Positions 4,702 to 25,886 of a DNA stretch of 31,048 nucleotides are shown here, in pieces. Origin of the DNA: a virus; the UHGV virus genome UHGV-0096129; one strand, given 5' to 3'. Each line of letters opens with the position of its first letter. Position 1 is the first letter of the stretch. The notes under the pieces are model-generated. The model searched no databases and was not told where the DNA came from. It saw only the letters and a program-made list of their open reading frames with translations. A program made the translations under genes and the position numbers.

Positions 4702-4789
4702 AGCTAACAACTTACAAATATTCAAAAGTAAGCTTCCTGTTGCTAACATAAGGTCGATTTTTTATGTGGATGATGCAAAAAGGATAGCT

Positions 4790-5521
4790 ATGGATACTGT
4801 AATCGCTTTTCTATCACTCGCTTTTTTCGTTGCTTTTTTCATCGGATTAATCAAACCATCACTGGTGCGGATGCCAAACCGTAAAAGTGCAAGTGCGGTT
4901 TATCTCGGAGGAGGTTTTGTATTGAGCATAATTGGTTCAATACTCTATCCAACAGAAAAAAGCCAGCCAGTTGCTAAAACTGAAACATCAACCGTTGCAG
5001 AACACCAAGTCCAAAAAAAATTCGAATATGGTGGAAAAACACTCAAGGAATATCGGAACGAGCCAAAGAAAACTCGACACGATATTGTGAATAGTTACAT
5101 TGATTTTAAGGAAGTGCCAGTCACCGCATCAGATGCATTTTATGCCTGCATGAGTGAATATACTTTTACCAAAGATGATGAGTTGAAACTCGGTGATGTT
5201 CTTGGATGGTGCTTTAATGATTATGAAAAAGATCCGAAATCACTAAACAATAAAATCAACCTTGATACATTTCAGAGTAATTTTAGCGGTTGGGATGGTT
5301 CTTATCGACCATTGGAAAAGCTAATTAAAGAGAATATGAACGATGATTCATCTTATAAACATGTGTCAACAGTGTATCATTTGGTTTTGAATAAAGATCC
5401 GCACGCCATTGTGAAAACAACATTTCGCGGAACTAATGCTTATGGCGGAGTGGTGAAACAGACCGTTGCGGCGCGCGTCAATGTTCGAACTGGTGAGGTA
5501 ACTTCAATAATTGATAACTAA
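4790..5521 (+). CDS. hypothetical membrane protein (two N-terminal hydrophobic helices plus ~190-aa soluble domain)
   Basis: Track ORF 4766..5521 begins at GTG; the ATG at 4790 has AAGGA 8 nt upstream. Hydrophobic segments VIAFLSLAFFVAFFIGLI and AVYLGGGFVLSIIGSILY. AT-rich, unlike the phage backbone. No known domain recognised. Confidence 0.6.
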   Translation: MDTVIAFLSLAFFVAFFIGLIKPSLVRMPNRKSASAVYLGGGFVLSIIGSILYPTEKSQPVAKTETSTVAEHQVQKKFEYGGKTLKEYRNEPKKTRHDIVNSYIDFKEVPVTASDAFYACMSEYTFTKDDELKLGDVLGWCFNDYEKDPKSLNNKINLDTFQSNFSGWDGSYRPLEKLIKENMNDDSSYKHVSTVYHLVLNKDPHAIVKTTFRGTNAYGGVVKQTVAARVNVRTGEVTSIIDN

Positions 5522-5548
5522 AGTGAAGGGCTAGGCCATGTTATGTTT

Positions 5549-5569
5549 AAGCCATAATATGGCTTTTTT
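5549..5569 (+). terminator. weak hairpin plus T-run between the two forward cargo genes
   Basis: AAGCCA-taata-TGGCTT followed by TTTT; short AT-rich stem, so at best a partial terminator or attenuator. Confidence 0.2.
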
Positions 5570-5603
5570 ATGATTTGGGTAAATTGATAAGGAGTCGATT
5601 TAA

Positions 5604-6200
5604 ATGAATTCAAAAAAAAGGAATAAATACCTCAAGTTAATGTTTGAGTGTAGAAAAAGAATTGAAACGCTACATGATTTAGCATCCGGACATACAGGAG
5701 GACTTTATCTTCAAGTTTTAATAGAAATAGAAGCGTTACAACTCAGAAAGTTATTGGAGCTTATCGCATTTTCATCGTTAATTTCATATGAGGAATCCTA
5801 TAAGACTGTTGCGAAGAGTATTGATGGTGTATGGAAAGCCAAGCGTATTATAAGTGAGTTAGAAAAAATAAATCCAAATTTTTACCCGTTACCTGTATCA
5901 TCATTTACCAATGACGGGTGGAAGAAATTGAAAGGTGGATATTTAACAAAAAAACAATTTATTGCACTGTATGATGAATGTTCAACTCATATTCATGTTA
6001 GAAACCCATACAGGATAAGCGAAAACTCGCTGGCTTTTCATAGAAAAGTACCTTCATACTTAGAGAGAATTGAATGTTTATTATCTAAACATATTGTTTC
6101 ACTTGTAGATGATAGGGAGTTTCTTTTTGTAGAGGTACCTCATTTTGAAGATTCGGCTACCCCTCTAAGAATTAGATGTTTAATTAAAAATAGAGGGTAA
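5604..6200 (+). CDS. hypothetical protein (198 aa), second gene of the forward cargo module
   Basis: ATG with AAGGAG 9 nt upstream; AT-rich; no recognisable catalytic motif (no Walker A, no obvious nuclease signature). Confidence 0.65.
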   Translation: MNSKKRNKYLKLMFECRKRIETLHDLASGHTGGLYLQVLIEIEALQLRKLLELIAFSSLISYEESYKTVAKSIDGVWKAKRIISELEKINPNFYPLPVSSFTNDGWKKLKGGYLTKKQFIALYDECSTHIHVRNPYRISENSLAFHRKVPSYLERIECLLSKHIVSLVDDREFLFVEVPHFEDSATPLRIRCLIKNRG

Positions 6201-6446
6201 ATTTTTATTATCCCTTAATGATAACTTACATTAGTTATGATAAAAGTTTGATAACGTCAGTAGTGCTGGAGCTGTCCTTCAGCACTGATGGAGTTGAACA
6301 ATGAGCACTTCTGGACGTTATATTAATACTGATATAGTTAGTGGTTTTATTCTAAATTATTAGCGTAGCGCCGAAACTCACTATTTACAATGGTGGGGTA
6401 ACGCTGAAAGAACCGGAGCGTAGATATCTTTTTTTACTGAAAAATT

Positions 6447-6468
6447 GTGGTCAATATTGCTTGACCAC
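6447..6468. repeat. 8-bp inverted repeat (GTGGTCAA tattgc TTGACCAC) in the convergent intergenic spacer
   Basis: Seen directly; on the minus strand the hairpin is followed by AATTTTT, so it could be a terminator for the FRG-domain gene or a protein-binding palindrome. Confidence 0.3.
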
Positions 6469-6616
6469 TATACAGCGTCAGTTCAAACTACAATTAATAA
6501 AGTTAAGGTTCATAGCCTTTTTGAAGGGTACGTATCCAAGAGGCCTGTGCTCACTATGTGGTAAAGAGTCAAAATATCGTTATGTCTGATTCTTACGCAC
6601 AATTGTAATATTTCTT

Positions 6617-7972
6617 TTAAATGTCAGACATATATTTCTTTGCGATTTCAGAAGCTGTCTTTTCTATACTTGGATAAACAGTGCTCTCAGTAATGTTCAA
6701 TTGTGCAAGTTCTTTCAAGATTATTTTTTTATTAACTATGTCAACTCTGTCAAGAGGAAAGTCTTCTGTTGTCTCTGGGAGTACTGCCTCGTGACCAAAT
6801 AATAGAAATGCGCCAGACTGTGATTGAATGCGTTCATTATTTATTCTGGCGCGGATGAATAGTATTTTCCGAAGATCATGCAGGTCTATATTTTTTTTAA
6901 AATATGGTTTTTCAGCTTGAATATGATCTAAAAGTTTATTGAGTAGTTCTTTTGCGTGAGATTTGTCGTTTTCAATTAAGCTTTTTGATATAGTGCTTAA
7001 GATATTGTGTGGCATAAATGCCAGATTGGCTATACAGCTAACAGTATCAGAGTCAAAATATTTGATATTTTTTCTTTCTGTAGGAAACGAGATGACTTGT
7101 CCGGTGTCTTCAGGATCTTCACAGCATGCAAAATATAAAGCAATTAGCGGGTTGGATGTAATATCTAGCAATCTTGTAGGTAAACCATAATGCTGCATTC
7201 TAACTAATTTATCGATCGTAAAATTATCAGATATAAATTCATTAGGCCTTGCTGACAGAATTTCACGAACCATAGATGATTCTGAATCAAGGTGCTTATG
7301 AGTCCCGTTATCATGTTTCCGGAAAAGAGATGGGATAAGTTCATATTTATTTCGTGAATGTCCTCTATAAAAAATTTCAGAGTTTGAATTGTTGGATTTT
7401 TCTATAAAACTGATATATTCCTTTAAGCTCTTTATTTTTCTTATTTTTGATGTTCTTTTGATGTTTCCAATTTTGGAGGTGTTAGAGAGAATTTTTTCAG
7501 TTGTATCGTTTTTGGTTTTATTTAGCTCAAGTTTTAGCAGTGTTTCTCTTAATTTTTTATCTTTAACTGCCCAGTGGGTTCTGCTAAGACCATAAGCACC
7601 TAAGTCTAATATTTCTTTATATTGTTTTATTTCGGGGTTCTTGATTTCGCCAAAATCATGAACGATTTCAAAGTGATAACAAACATCATCATTGTCTATG
7701 TGTAAGTTGCCGACTTTTCCAAGTCTTACTCTTAAATATCTATTTTTGTCACCGTCTTTATCGTATATTTCAGTCATGAAAAGAACAGGTAGCTTAGATA
7801 GAGCGTCTAAAGTTATAGGGCTTACTGGTGTTAATTTTTTATAAAGTAAGGATGGTGTACCTTCTAGCATTCGGGAAAGAGAGAAACTATCTTCCCCATT
7901 TTTAATATTAGGATCCATAGATGGCCATCTATCAAACACAGAGGGCTCACCCCCGATAATGAGATTAAACAT
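6617..7972 (-). CDS. FRG-domain protein with uncharacterised ~190-aa N-terminal domain
   Basis: 451-aa ORF with AAGGAG 5-6 nt upstream of the ATG. C-terminal half carries motifs I recognise as the FRG domain (IFYRGHSRNKYELIPSLFR ... MQHYGLPTRLLDITSNPLIALYFAC ... SQSGAFLLFG). N-terminal domain and lysine-rich linker unrecognised. Strongly AT-rich. Confidence 0.7.
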   Translation of the reverse strand: MFNLIIGGEPSVFDRWPSMDPNIKNGEDSFSLSRMLEGTPSLLYKKLTPVSPITLDALSKLPVLFMTEIYDKDGDKNRYLRVRLGKVGNLHIDNDDVCYHFEIVHDFGEIKNPEIKQYKEILDLGAYGLSRTHWAVKDKKLRETLLKLELNKTKNDTTEKILSNTSKIGNIKRTSKIRKIKSLKEYISFIEKSNNSNSEIFYRGHSRNKYELIPSLFRKHDNGTHKHLDSESSMVREILSARPNEFISDNFTIDKLVRMQHYGLPTRLLDITSNPLIALYFACCEDPEDTGQVISFPTERKNIKYFDSDTVSCIANLAFMPHNILSTISKSLIENDKSHAKELLNKLLDHIQAEKPYFKKNIDLHDLRKILFIRARINNERIQSQSGAFLLFGHEAVLPETTEDFPLDRVDIVNKKIILKELAQLNITESTVYPSIEKTASEIAKKYMSDI

Positions 7973-8418: not shown

Positions 8419-9453
8419 TCAGCCGTTGTCAGTGTCCAGTGAGTAGTTTTTAAAGCGGATGACCTCCTGACCGAGCCAGCCGTTTATTTCCCGAATCCTG
8501 TCCTGTAACGGGATAAGCTCATTGCGGACAAAGACCTTTGCCACTTTCTCAATATCGCCCAGCGACCCGACATTCTCCGGCTTACCGCCCATCAACTGAA
8601 AGGGGATGCGGTGTGCGTCCAGCAGGTCAGCGGCGCTGGCTTTTTTGATATTAAAAAAATCGTCCTTCGTTGCCACTTCACTGAGCGGGATAATTTTAAT
8701 ACCGTCGGCTTTTCCCTGTGGGGCGTAGAGAAACAGGTTTTTAAAGTTGTTGCGGCCTTTCGACTTCACCATGTTTTCGCGAAGCATTTCGATATCGTTG
8801 CGATCCTGCACGGCATCGGTGACGTACATGATGTATCCGGCATGTGCGCCATTTTCGTAATACTTGCGGCGGAACAGCGTGGCCGACTCATTCAGCCAGG
8901 CAGAGTTAAGGGCGCTGAGATATTCCGGCAGGCCGTACAGCTCCTGATTAATATCCGGCTCCAGCAGGTGAAATACGGAGCCGGGCGCGAAAGGTGTCGG
9001 CTCGTTGAAGGACGGCACCCACCAGTAAACATCCTCCTCCACGCCACGGCGGGTATATTTTGCCGGTGAGGTTTCCAGTCTGATGACCTTACCGGTGGTG
9101 CTGTAACGCTTTTCCAGAAACGCATTACCGAACACCAGAAAATCCAGCACAAAGCGGCTGAAATCCTGCTGGGAAAGCCACGGGTGCGGGATAAACGTTG
9201 AAGCCAGAATATTACGTTTGACGTAAATCGGTGAGCTGTGATGCACGGCAGCACGCAGACTTTTTGCCAGACCGGTAAAGCTGACCGGCGGCTCATACCA
9301 TCTGCCGTTACTGATGCATTCGACGTAATCCAGAATGTCACGGCGGTCGAGTACCGGCACCGGCTCGCCAAAGGTGAATGCCTCCATTTTCGGGGCGCTG
9401 GCGGTCATTGTTTTTGCCGCAGGTTGCGGTGTTTTCCCTTTTTTCTTGCTCAT
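8419..9453 (-). CDS. Q: portal protein gpQ
   Basis: 344 aa, the P2 Q length as I recall it; ATGA overlap with the P stop; position next to cos and the terminase gene. Confidence 0.9.
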   Translation of the reverse strand: MSKKKGKTPQPAAKTMTASAPKMEAFTFGEPVPVLDRRDILDYVECISNGRWYEPPVSFTGLAKSLRAAVHHSSPIYVKRNILASTFIPHPWLSQQDFSRFVLDFLVFGNAFLEKRYSTTGKVIRLETSPAKYTRRGVEEDVYWWVPSFNEPTPFAPGSVFHLLEPDINQELYGLPEYLSALNSAWLNESATLFRRKYYENGAHAGYIMYVTDAVQDRNDIEMLRENMVKSKGRNNFKNLFLYAPQGKADGIKIIPLSEVATKDDFFNIKKASAADLLDAHRIPFQLMGGKPENVGSLGDIEKVAKVFVRNELIPLQDRIREINGWLGQEVIRFKNYSLDTDNG

Positions 9454-22836: not shown

Positions 22837-23364
22837 ATGCAGCATTTAAAAAATATTACTGCGGGTAATCCAAAAACTGTTGCCCAATATCAACTGACAA
22901 AAAATTTTGATGTTATCTGGTTATGGTCCGAAGAGGGAAAAAACTGGTATGAGGAAGTAAGTAATTTTCAGGAAGACACGATAAAGATTGTTTACGATGA
23001 GAATAATATAATTGTCGGCATCACCAGAGATGCTTCAACGCTCAACCCTGAAGGTTTTAGCGTTGTCGAGGTTCCTGATATTACCGCCAACCGACGTGCT
23101 GATGACTCAGGTAAATGGATGTTTAAGGATGGTGCCGTGATTAAGCGGATTTATACGGCAGACGAACAGCAACAACAGGCAGAATCACAAAAGGCCGCGT
23201 TACTTTCCGAAGCGGAAAGCGTTATTCAGCCACTGGAGCGCGCTGTCAGGCTGAACATGGCAACAGATGAGGAGCGTAGCCGACTGGAAGCATGGGAACG
23301 CTACAGTGTTCTGGTCAGCCGTGTGGATCCTGCAAATCCTGAATGGCCGGAAATGCCGCAATAA
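22837..23364 (+). CDS. G: tail fibre assembly chaperone gpG
   Basis: 175 aa directly downstream of H; AT-richer like the 3' part of H. Confidence 0.8.
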
Positions 23365-23413
23365 GTTGTATGAGCTGACATATCTATAGCACAGAGTAAA
23401 GCCTAATCTGACA

Positions 23414-23437
23414 GTCCGCTCTGTGCAAGGAGCGGAC
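23414..23437. other. 8-bp stem hairpin (GTCCGCTC tgtgcaag GAGCGGAC) between convergent G and the reverse cargo gene
   Basis: Seen directly; no flanking T-run on either strand, so terminator function is uncertain. Confidence 0.2.
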
Positions 23438-23515
23438 ATTACCTAACACATTGGTAACCTTCACAGATTTACGCGTTCTACATAGTTAGCATTGTATCTG
23501 ATGAGTTATCATGTT

Positions 23516-24295
23516 TTAAAATATCCAACTGATAAATCCACCTGAATACTTTTCACTAATTTTGATTGCATAAAGATCATGAAGAGTTATAAATAAATCA
23601 TTATCTTCTTTGAAAATTAACTCCTCATATTCTGCCATTATCAAATTATGCTGTGTTGTTAGTTTAGATATGTTATCTATTTCACTGGCAAGCATGGATT
23701 TGTTTACATTGGTGTGTGGATCCATGGCAATATATTTCCGCATCAATGGAATTAGTTGATCAGGGTCTATATTTTTTGCATTTTCCTTTGCTTTTTTTTG
23801 TCTTTCTGAATAGATGGAGTTAATTGTGTCAGTGTGTTTTTTCGCCAGTCTCTTAAACTCTGGATATGAACCAGTAACTAATGCAAGCTCTTCGTACTTA
23901 AGGAATAAATCGATATTGCATTTTTTTACCGTCATTTCAAGATCTTCAACTCTTTTTTTTAACTCTTCATTTGTTTTAATAAGAGACATCGGGAGAACTT
24001 CATAATGTTGTCCTAATTCTGAATCAGGGCTCATTGCCATATGTACTATTTCATTATACATGAGCTGATAAGAAGCAGATAACTCTCCATACTTTAGAAA
24101 TAGTTCATTATGTGAAGATGAACAAGAACTTTGTAATTTCATCATTGGCCTAAAGTAATCCTTTATAAACTCCTCCTGAAGATCTTGGTCTTTTTTGTAG
24201 CTCTCTAGGATTCCAGCAAAAAGAAATGACCCTAAAGATATAGAGATTATGGATATTAGCAATTGACTAAGGAATGATTGTGTTTCATTACTCAT
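23516..24295 (-). CDS. hypothetical membrane-anchored protein at the Z/fun hotspot
   Basis: 259 aa with AAGGA 6 nt upstream of the ATG. N-terminal hydrophobic helix (FLSQLLISIISISLGSFLFAGIL) followed by a Lys/Glu-rich, helix-prone domain. Strongly AT-rich; reverse orientation between G and FI. Confidence 0.65.
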   Translation of the reverse strand: MSNETQSFLSQLLISIISISLGSFLFAGILESYKKDQDLQEEFIKDYFRPMMKLQSSCSSSHNELFLKYGELSASYQLMYNEIVHMAMSPDSELGQHYEVLPMSLIKTNEELKKRVEDLEMTVKKCNIDLFLKYEELALVTGSYPEFKRLAKKHTDTINSIYSERQKKAKENAKNIDPDQLIPLMRKYIAMDPHTNVNKSMLASEIDNISKLTTQHNLIMAEYEELIFKEDNDLFITLHDLYAIKISEKYSGGFISWIF

Positions 24296-24554
24296 AAAAC
24301 ATCCTTAAAAAATAACACGAAAAGTGACTCCTGACAGGGAAGAAACGACAGGTCGGAAACAAACTTAACTGATGAGTTAGCCGTAGTCCAGAACCTTGTT
24401 TGAACACTTAGTGTGACTGTTTGCATCTCAGGAATTTGTGCCAATAATATTTGAATCCTTATAATTTATTTAAATCAAATTTAGTTACTCGCTCAAAGCA
24501 GGCTGTCAGATTTGATAGCGTTTGGGCTATGTAAACTGTCAGTCGGAAAATGAG

Positions 24555-24572
24555 TGTGTACAAATCAGGACA
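24555..24572. promoter_or_regulatory. candidate Ogr-type late-promoter activator site (TGT-N12-ACA) upstream of FI
   Basis: TGTgtacaaatcaggACA found by scanning the FI upstream region, about 125-140 nt before the FI ATG; P2 late promoters carry a TGT-N12-ACA dyad around -55. Confidence 0.3.
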
Positions 24573-24695
24573 GGCGAGCTGATTGCCCGCCTTTTCTTTA
24601 TCTGTTGTTTCATCCACTGACCAGCCAGGTCAAATAGCGTCTCATGCACTGCCCAACAGAAAATAGTTGCACCCATTAACCACGGAGTTAAACGG

Positions 24696-25886
24696 ATGAG
24701 TGACTATCATCATGGCGTGCAGGTGCTGGAGATTAACGACGGCACCCGCGTCATTTCCACTGTATCCACGGCCATTGTCGGCATGGTCTGCACGGCCAGC
24801 GATGCGGATGCGGAAACCTTCCCCCTCAATAAACCGGTGCTGATTACCAATGTGCAGAGCGCAATTGCAAAGGCCGGTAAAAAAGGCACGCTGGCGGCAT
24901 CGTTGCAGGCCATCGCCGACCAGTCAAAACCGGTCACCGTTGTCGTGCGTGTGGAAGACGGCACCGGCGACGACGAGGAAACGAAACTCGCGCAGACCGT
25001 TTCCAATATCATCGGCACCACTGACGAAAACGGTCAGTACACCGGACTGAAAGCCCTGCTGGCGGCGGAGTCGGTAACCGGTGTTAAGCCGCGCATTCTC
25101 GGTGTGCCGGGACTGGACACCAAAGAGGTTGCCGTCGCACTGGCATCAGTCTGTCAGAAGCTGCGCGCTTTCGGGTATATCAGCGCATGGGGCTGTAAAA
25201 CCATTTCTGAGGTGAAAGCCTACCGCCAGAATTTCAGCCAGCGTGAACTGATGGTTATCTGGCCGGATTTCCTCGCATGGGATACGGTCACCAGTACCAC
25301 CGCCACCGCGTATGCCACCGCCCGTGCGCTGGGTCTGCGTGCAAAAATCGACCAGGAGCAGGGCTGGCATAAAACGCTGTCCAACGTCGGGGTAAACGGT
25401 GTTACCGGCATCAGTGCCTCTGTATTCTGGGATTTGCAGGAGTCCGGCACCGATGCTGACCTGTTGAACGAGTCAGGTGTCACAACGCTGATTCGCCGTG
25501 ACGGTTTCCGCTTCTGGGGTAACCGTACCTGCTCTGATGACCCGCTGTTCCTCTTTGAAAACTACACCCGCACCGCGCAGGTGCTGGCCGACACGATGGC
25601 TGAGGCGCACATGTGGGCGGTGGACAAGCCCATCACTGCAACGCTGATTCGCGACATCGTTGACGGCATCAATGCCAAATTCCGTGAGCTGAAAACAAAC
25701 GGCTATATCGTGGATGCGACCTGCTGGTTCAGCGAAGAATCCAACGATGCGGAAACCCTCAAGGCCGGAAAACTGTATATCGACTACGACTATACACCGG
25801 TGCCTCCTCTTGAAAACCTGACCCTGCGCCAGCGTATTACCGATAAATACCTGGCAAATCTGGTCACTTCGGTTAACAGCAATTAA
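24696..25886 (+). CDS. FI: contractile tail sheath protein gpFI
   Basis: 396 aa; synteny. Confidence 0.9.
   Translation: MSDYHHGVQVLEINDGTRVISTVSTAIVGMVCTASDADAETFPLNKPVLITNVQSAIAKAGKKGTLAASLQAIADQSKPVTVVVRVEDGTGDDEETKLAQTVSNIIGTTDENGQYTGLKALLAAESVTGVKPRILGVPGLDTKEVAVALASVCQKLRAFGYISAWGCKTISEVKAYRQNFSQRELMVIWPDFLAWDTVTSTTATAYATARALGLRAKIDQEQGWHKTLSNVGVNGVTGISASVFWDLQESGTDADLLNESGVTTLIRRDGFRFWGNRTCSDDPLFLFENYTRTAQVLADTMAEAHMWAVDKPITATLIRDIVDGINAKFRELKTNGYIVDATCWFSEESNDAETLKAGKLYIDYDYTPVPPLENLTLRQRITDKYLANLVTSVNSN

Follow-up and report, generated by a model that had tools for sequence, protein, structure and literature searches.

The P2 Z/fun slot and its known cargo

The interval between genes G and FI of P2-like phages, known as the Z/fun slot, has a record as a hotspot for accessory genes. 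Three experimentally validated defence systems, together with fun, were reported from the G–FI slot by Vassallo et al. (2022; PMC9519451), and Rousset et al. (2022; PMC9122126) tested the A–Q hotspot alone. The hotspots of P2 also carry cargo other than defence genes, e.g. tail-fibre variants and toxins (PMC9122126; bioRxiv 2024.10.15.618418), and according to Egorov & Atkinson (bioRxiv 2024.10.15.618418) some 90% of the protein groups in hotspots lack an annotation and the slot also takes tail-fibre swaps and further kinds of cargo. In P2 itself the place is filled by a 2.1-kb module that encodes Fun(Z), a protein of 528 amino acids (aa), which, as annotated in the P2 record (NP_046777), blocks the growth of phage T5 and confers sensitivity to FUdR.

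The locus analysed here most closely resembles the P2 Z-region cassettes (Nilsson, Karlsson & Haggard-Ljungquist 2004; AJ512676–AJ512685), with which it shares the slot, the AT-rich foreign DNA, the same flanking inverted repeats and the presence of a single accessory gene that brings along its own signals for expression. Its cargo, however, is unrelated to fun(Z), to P2-EC67 ORF1 and to the cargos of Wphi, pro147 and AC1, with which the flanks alone align (16–20% coverage).

A cargo cassette between genes G and FI

The window, i.e. the whole analysed stretch of 31,048 nt from the virus genome UHGV-0096129, is a P2-like prophage. Gene G (tail fibre assembly; 22837–23364, plus strand, an ORF of 175 aa equivalent to gene G of Yersinia phage L-413C) forms the left conserved flank of the hotspot, and gene FI (tail sheath; 24696–25886, plus strand) the right one, with the gene order being that of L-413C. 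The region 23365–24695 thus represents the whole G–FI intergenic interval. It contains, on the minus strand, a coding sequence (CDS) of 259 aa with an ATG start (23516–24295) and a Shine–Dalgarno motif AAGGA (24302–24306) 6 nt upstream of it. The gene is the one known as L-413Cp20 / WP_065275707, annotated in L-413C as a "hypothetical protein". The entire interval shares 99.5% nucleotide identity with L-413C, and the cargo is 100% identical to that in a prophage of E. coli KE50, which also shares the gene order. Because homologous clusters down to 37% identity retain a length of about 259 aa and the invariant residues, the ORF is a real gene.

The ORF list and the GC profile agree in every respect with the earlier note as to the coordinates, strand, length, AT-richness and G–FI position of this gene: the GC content is 0.31–0.35 across 23450–24500, comprising the ORF and its leader, versus 0.50–0.58 in the flanks. 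The identification of the place with the P2 Z/fun slot is likewise borne out, since homology to P2 breaks off at 23436–23441 and resumes at 24488 (24488–24489 in blastn comparisons with the P2 and P2-EC67 backbone). Between these points, an AT-rich module of about 1046 bp (23442–24487) stands in place of the 2.1-kb fun(Z) module of P2. The gene, lying between G and FI with conserved flanks, inverted repeats and a deviant, low GC content, is swapped-in cargo of the P2 Z/fun slot. The earlier note had left open whether it is a Z/fun homologue or a different cargo gene, and it is the latter that agrees with our results. A BLASTP search against Fun(Z) gave a best E-value of 0.42 over 14 residues (7/14 identities), and the two proteins differ in length (259 versus 528 aa), which rules out homology; the effect of Fun(Z) on T5 therefore cannot be transferred to the 259-aa protein.

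The module is bounded by two arms of an inverted repeat. The left arm (I1; 23405–23429, 25 nt), on the side of the P2 backbone, is 80% complementary to the right arm (24488–24512), at which homology to the P2 backbone resumes. The repeat core CTGACAGnCnGCTnTGnGC occurs twice in the window, both times in the arms, with 0.04 occurrences expected by chance. In the AJ5126xx Z-region records, which were deposited by Nilsson et al., both arms have counterparts among the features labelled as left and right inverted repeats; for the left arm this is the "left inverted repeat" of P2-EC67 (AJ512685). Inside the left arm, downstream of the 259-aa gene, there is a stable hairpin GTCCGCTC-N8-GAGCGGAC (23414–23437) lacking a U-tract. 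Its folding energy amounts to −16.2 kcal/mol for the minus and −17.3 kcal/mol for the plus strand, the z-value of the latter being −2.9. An Rfam search of both strands of 23300–24760 returned no match.

On its 5′ side the gene is preceded by a leader of 192 nt (24296–24487, minus strand) that carries the Shine–Dalgarno motif and presumably also the promoter, although a scan of the minus strand upstream of the gene for the sigma-70 consensus found no convincing candidate. A 50-aa upstream ORF (24444–24292), whose stop codon overlaps the start codon of the 259-aa gene (ATGA), was considered for translational coupling and rejected, as it is broken in the copy from Enterobacter ludwigii.

The cassette as a mobile unit

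Leader, gene and hairpin recur together in enterobacterial chromosomes. In Enterobacter, Phytobacter, Superficieibacter and Citrobacter, the leader is 75–83% identical to that in the window and the CDS 79–89%, these ranges narrowing to 81–83% and 86–89%, respectively, when Citrobacter is left aside; the 3′ tail with the hairpin is 82–89% identical in the former three genera and about 51% in Citrobacter. Chromosomal cassettes retain the hairpin, which in E. ludwigii has undergone a compensatory C>T / G>A change, and the leader element GTTATnTTTTAAGG is invariant at all eight loci compared. A palindromic unit GTCCGCT...AGCGGAC is also found at the chromosomal cassette ends; at one such locus (L013) the arms occupy positions 7789–7812 and 8859–8882 and are 1046 nt apart. 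The joint conservation of these elements in enterobacterial chromosomes indicates that leader, gene and hairpin (about 1.1 kb), bounded by the palindrome, constitute the unit of transfer. In 2004, Nilsson et al. reportedly suggested that the Z region undergoes site-specific or short-homology exchange, and the cassette ends that we observe agree with an exchange of this kind.

Distribution and conservation of the protein family

A word-indexed search retrieved 45 clusters with 37–98% identity to the 259-aa protein, from Escherichia, Enterobacter, Pantoea, Pectobacterium, Superficieibacter, Leclercia, Teredinibacter, Vibrio and Marinomonas, with lengths of 257–262 aa except for a handful of incomplete sequences on short contigs. 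When 1.84 billion representative sequences were searched with a profile, 91 proteins emerged, of which 40 had E<=1e-30; the full-length ones mostly measure 244–303 aa and the shorter matches are fragments. The family is sparsely distributed: it is present in 13 of 5426 complete E. coli genomes, and a search with the family alignment A1 found 13 loci among 185,579 species genomes (one genome per species). IMG/VR contains seven loci, all 99–100% identical to the copy in the window. The diversity of the family is thus chromosomal and mostly not phage-borne, which implies that the P2-like lineage captured one variant.

The conserved length, together with 31 residues invariant in alignment A1 (26 sequences), points to purifying selection. 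Across the broader family of 102 members, the best-conserved residues of all are two cysteines, Cys58 (97 members) and Cys126 (95 members). Five of the seven members short of a cysteine lack both, and most members hold exactly two. Six residues in and just behind the hydrophobic segment described below (G22, F26, G28, E31, Y33 and K34) are conserved in 83–93 of the 102. Shortened copies of 132–175 aa exist in some E. coli assemblies.

Predicted structure and membrane topology

The protein is anchored in the membrane by one N-terminal helix, just as the earlier note had proposed. A single hydrophobic segment, LLISIISISLGSFLFAGIL, spans aa 12–30 (codons at 24206–24262, minus strand), with a mean Kyte–Doolittle hydropathy of 2.36; no second hydrophobic segment is present. 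It is followed by a conserved juxtamembrane motif E-x-Y-K-x-D. The remainder had been described as a charged helical domain of coiled-coil character, and structure prediction had been suggested as a check. The AlphaFold2 model (pLDDT 82.7, pTM 0.72) upholds the helical part of this description, being an all-helical bundle of five helices (aa 8–88, 100–141, 144–172, 178–190 and 196–249), whereas the coiled-coil part has to be abandoned, since the bundle is compact rather than an extended coiled coil. The C-terminal tail is conserved and disordered, and ends with an aromatic-x-Phe motif (GGFISWIF); it could serve as a ligand of periplasmic PDZ proteases, or the motif could engage some other phage or host partner in the periplasm.

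The two conserved cysteines, encoded at 24122–24124 (Cys58) and 23918–23920 (Cys126) on the minus strand, occur on antiparallel helices, and in the model they appear to be in register on the hairpin formed by helices 8–88 and 100–141. A Cys58–Cys126 disulfide bond probably stabilises the bundle; alternatively, the cysteine pair could form a metal site with His62, located four residues after Cys58.

Several features bear on the orientation of the protein in the inner membrane. N-terminal tails of 20–49 aa precede the transmembrane (TM) helix in 17 of 59 full-length representatives, and a tail of 269 aa in one relative (P0120); they contain 2–13 Lys/Arg residues and no signal peptide, and such long charged tails are expected to stay in the cytoplasm rather than to cross the membrane. 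P0120 is a fusion protein of 512 aa with a Peptidase_C14 caspase domain (Pfam E-value 2.4e-17; in NCBIfam "caspase, EACC1-associated type", E-value 5.5e-19) N-terminal to the TM helix, from which it is separated by a Lys-rich linker. The close enterobacterial members have no Lys or Arg before the TM helix and three to four after it, and a plain count of these residues would predict the reverse topology, with a cytoplasmic C-terminus; the C-terminal flank is nevertheless net acidic. Taken together, the charged N-terminal tails, the fusion to a cytoplasmic caspase and the cysteine pair favour an N-in/C-out topology with a disulfide-bonded periplasmic bundle, and we consider it rather probable that the bundle faces the periplasm.

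Genomic neighbourhoods

We distinguished 16 genomic contexts of the family, and no neighbouring gene recurs among them; three further relatives (P0134, P0081 and P0112) were set aside, as their contigs are too short. The family gene always stands alone, so its product works either alone or with core host factors. Some of the neighbourhoods are rich in defence genes. In Vibrio sagamiensis the gene directly follows hsdM-hsdS-hsdR (a type I restriction–modification system) and precedes genes for a DUF4440 protein and an HNH nuclease; in E. ludwigii it comes after an Mrr-type restriction gene and is again followed by DUF4440. It lies 177 nt from the gene for a 985-aa ABC-ATPase matching the PADLOC candidate PDC-S06 (E-value 0) in Phytobacter, and 86 nt after the gene for a DUF2971 protein matching PDC-S31 (E-value 1e-34) in Vibrio sp. 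HI00D65, while the caspase-fused relative is encoded directly after a type I restriction–modification operon with an AAA_13 gene. Among the other copies, that of Pectobacterium belongs to an integrase island, where three genes (about 2.5 kb) separate it from the Hcp-VgrG-DcrB-PAAR-Rhs cluster of a type VI secretion system (T6SS), the Teredinibacter copy adjoins an IS110 transposase, and that of Candidatus Thiodiazotropha a nucleotidyltransferase of toxin–antitoxin type. The P2 Z slot between G and FI, as found in the window, adds a phage-borne context, and in about seven of the 16 contexts (Superficieibacter, Citrobacter, Kangiellaceae, Nitrospirota, Bordetella, Pseudomonas and Marinomonas) the neighbours are housekeeping or unannotated genes only. 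A restriction or candidate defence gene immediately adjoins the family gene in about six of the 16 contexts. The sample is small and has no formal background rate, but the share is well above the one that we would expect for a random gene.

Searches for characterised relatives

The family is uncharacterised, and within the databases covered here none of the known defence or exclusion proteins could be recognised as related to it. Searches with the 259-aa protein found no family at E<=1 in either Pfam-A or PADLOC-DB v2.0.0, and in NCBIfam only the hemerythrin domain at an E-value of 0.1 (12.7 bits versus a cut-off of 51.75). The sole match in PHROGs is phrog_7729, a group of unknown function whose profile spans aa 79–259. 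A search of PADLOC-DB v2.0.0 with 56 divergent relatives gave nothing convincing either, the best match being that of one member to PDC-M01A (2.7e-05) and the others being scattered matches to coiled-coil families. A profile search of PDB sequences returned only chance coiled-coil matches (best E-value 0.015), and BFVD, a collection of viral structures, no match at E<=0.001. All fold matches obtained with Foldseek are generic, with E-values above 0.09, and include no solved-structure relative; a fold that is a generic helical bundle is silent on function. In particular, no homology in sequence or structure to characterised superinfection-exclusion proteins (SieA, Sp, Imm, gp15 and Sim types) was found via PHROGs, BFVD and PDB. 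In the literature searched, NP_839869, WP_065275707, L-413Cp20 and phrog_7729 are unmentioned, although a comment on the gene, or a test of it, may exist in Nilsson 2004, Brenes & Laub 2025 or the L-413C genome paper.

Possible biological role

Our preferred, albeit tentative, proposal is that the 259-aa protein is a single-protein anti-phage factor of the superinfection-exclusion type, acting in the cell envelope through a periplasmic bundle and expressed in the lysogen. The gene would be an accessory ("moron") gene captured as a cassette of about 1.1 kb into the G–FI (Z) hotspot, and its expression, running opposite to the late operons, would presumably be driven by its own leader. One N-terminal helix would anchor the product in the inner membrane and expose a disulfide-stabilised five-helix bundle to the periplasm, where, or at the inner membrane, it may interfere with the genome-delivery machinery of an incoming phage rather than sense infection in the cytoplasm. 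A binding or blocking role fits the lack of any catalytic or nucleotide-binding signature in the Pfam, NCBIfam and PDB searches, and the stand-alone occurrence and mobility of the gene likewise speak for the proposal. Several points speak against it: the searches revealed no homology to known exclusion or defence proteins, about seven contexts have housekeeping or unannotated neighbours only, the Lys/Arg count of the close enterobacterial members suggests a cytoplasmic C-terminus, the cysteines could belong to a metal site, the fold is generic, P2 hotspots also hold non-defence cargo, and shortened copies exist in E. coli. A reading in terms of exclusion or abortive infection is plausible and indirectly supported by the defence hotspot and by relatives encoded beside type I restriction–modification, Mrr, HNH, PDC-S06 and PDC-S31 genes; the likely periplasmic orientation favours exclusion in the envelope over abortive infection triggered by cytoplasmic sensing.

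The alternative within the realm of phage defence is an abortive-infection effector, which would sense infection directly or via host factors, oligomerise, and permeabilise or depolarise the inner membrane, so that the cell dies before phage release. We regard this as unlikely. Being membrane-anchored, all-helical and encoded by a lone gene in a defence hotspot, the protein would suit such a role, given the general statement that membrane-spanning effectors are common in abortive systems (PMC9122126). The fusion in P0120 to a caspase-type domain, typical of effectors of conflict systems, shows that a killing module can be attached to the domain, and the shortened alleles in some genomes could mean that carriage has a cost. 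Yet the protein has one TM helix only, with no second amphipathic or hydrophobic segment and no intrinsic pore-forming segment, no sensor partner is encoded in any of the 16 contexts, the bundle probably faces the periplasm, i.e. away from phage replication, and its fold matches are generic. The protein may, on the other hand, have nothing to do with phages and instead provide immunity against a periplasm-acting bacteriocin or a T6SS or contact-dependent effector, or modulate envelope stress or the cell surface ("lysogenic conversion"), a possibility to which we assign a low probability. Some bacteriocin immunity proteins, e.g. that for colicin M, share the predicted design of the 259-aa protein, with an anchor in the inner membrane, a periplasmic domain and a probable disulfide. 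Such a role would accord with the proximity of the Pectobacterium copy to a T6SS cluster, with roughly half of the contexts being devoid of defence genes, with the name "Lysogenic conversion protein" given to one homologue in UniRef, and with the potential of the GGFISWIF tail to bind periplasmic PDZ proteases. However, the T6SS association concerns one of the 16 contexts and spans three genes, a toxin gene is adjacent in none of them, restriction or candidate defence genes are the immediate neighbours in about six, and anti-phage genes have been found in the P2 slot before.

That the protein is a diverged homologue or a functional equivalent of Fun(Z), blocking T5, is most improbable: the shared slot and the opposite-strand orientation speak for it and nothing else does, the homology part is refuted by the BLASTP result, between the flanks the cargo has no DNA in common with P2, and no protein of the length of Fun(Z) occurs among the 91 representatives or the 45 clusters except for the single 512-aa caspase fusion. 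Whatever probability lies outside exclusion, abortive infection and a non-phage envelope role belongs to something else. Going a step further than the exclusion factor that we favour, the bundle might be a new periplasmic module for sensing or binding phages, one that blocks genome delivery directly when standing alone and that in relatives such as P0120 is coupled across the membrane to a cytoplasmic EACC1-type caspase, enabling outside-in immune signalling that detects infection in the periplasm before genome entry; we deem this extended version quite doubtful.

If the proposed role in phage exclusion is true, a family without known relatives joins the short list of single-gene envelope defences, and the classical P2 Z/fun slot, including that of the plague-diagnostic phage L-413C, gains a second, unrelated function. 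The caspase-fused relative would then make immune signalling from the periplasm to the cytoplasm of bacteria directly testable, and this fusion, combined with the probable periplasmic location, represents a somewhat more interesting upside. If there is no phage phenotype, the gene simply joins the ~90% of hotspot cargo to which no function has been assigned; the prevalence of unannotated protein groups in hotspots makes it a reasonable candidate and not a surprise.

Comparison with known systems

Periplasmic four-helix bundles such as the ligand-binding domain of Tsr/Tar and the sensor QseE score no better against the predicted bundle than dozens of unrelated or designed bundles do, and they differ from the 259-aa protein in possessing a second TM helix and a cytoplasmic output domain. 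The PD-T4/PD-lambda/PD-T7 series (Vassallo 2022), the systems of Rousset 2022 and the PDC candidates of PADLOC are comparable in the hotspot logic, and the 259-aa family likewise occurs in defence-type neighbourhoods of chromosomes; it differs from them in that neither the protein nor its 56 relatives match any PADLOC v2 model convincingly. From superinfection-exclusion proteins the 259-aa protein is set apart by the lack of sequence likeness and by the mostly chromosomal, rather than phage-borne, diversity of its family. HK97 gp15 and P1 Sim are further prophage membrane proteins of superinfection exclusion. The likeness to P22 SieA (PMC10883804) and T4 Spackle (PMC7677548) consists in a small single gene whose product is non-enzymatic, autonomous and located at the inner membrane or in the periplasm, this location being predicted in the case of the 259-aa protein. 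With its uncharacterised protein family, the locus is of a kind already known, namely that of orphan accessory genes, probably anti-phage ones, which reside in P2 hotspots.

Borders and leader of the cassette

The AT-rich cargo module between genes G and FI is bordered in the phage by palindromic units of the form GTCCGCT...AGCGGAC (23405-23437 and 24488-24512), and the same units border the cassette at unrelated chromosomal sites in Enterobacter, Phytobacter and Citrobacter, being arranged in tandem in some cases. Chromosomal copies lie at 7789-7812 and 8859-8882 of the Enterobacter ludwigii locus L013, at 8856-8926 of locus L022 and at 7742-7813 of locus L024. The units look like sites at which the cassette is exchanged; no recombinase gene lies nearby.

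The gene for the 259-aa protein is preceded by a 192-nt leader (24296-24487, minus strand) that is 81-83% conserved in non-phage copies and contains a 14-nt motif, GTTATnTTTTAAGG, that even the Vibrio and Teredinibacter copies keep unchanged. The leader matches no Rfam family and has no consensus promoter on the minus strand, and a 50-aa ORF located upstream and overlapping the start codon of the 259-aa gene is not conserved.

The 259-aa protein and its relatives

The C-terminal tail of the protein, GGFISWIF (residues 252-259; 23516-23542, minus strand), is conserved across the family, despite being predicted as disordered (pLDDT <50): of 102 members, 84 have G253, 81 have F254 and 62 have F259. 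It terminates in aromatic-x-Phe, a kind of ending to which periplasmic PDZ proteases bind, and may be a ligand for such proteases. Several E. coli assemblies, including complete genomes, carry versions of only 132-175 aa within the cluster of the window protein, which suggests that the protein is occasionally inactivated.

A metagenomic relative, P0120 (512 aa; L017:6001-7539), joins an EACC1-type caspase domain, a transmembrane helix and the helical bundle in a single polypeptide, and its gene is directly preceded by a type I R-M operon with an AAA_13 ATPase gene. The fusion occurs on two independent contigs and is therefore not an assembly artefact. The next gene downstream of the homologue encodes a DUF4440 (SnoaL-like) protein both in Vibrio sagamiensis (L006:9127-9513) and in E. 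ludwigii (L013:9041-9397), in opposite orientations; this pairing is possibly a coincidence, because the gene is absent from the remaining contexts.

A second AT-rich island

At the other P2 hotspot, which is flanked by A/orf91 and the portal gene Q, lies another AT-rich island (4766-7972; GC 0.32-0.38). It comprises plus-strand ORFs of 251 aa (4766-5521) and 198 aa (5604-6200), neither matched in a PADLOC search, and a minus-strand ORF of 451 aa (6617-7972) that matches PDC-S15, a candidate defence family in PADLOC (E = 5.7e-98). The content of the island differs from that in Yersinia phage L-413C, where the same site holds a single 330-aa ORF.
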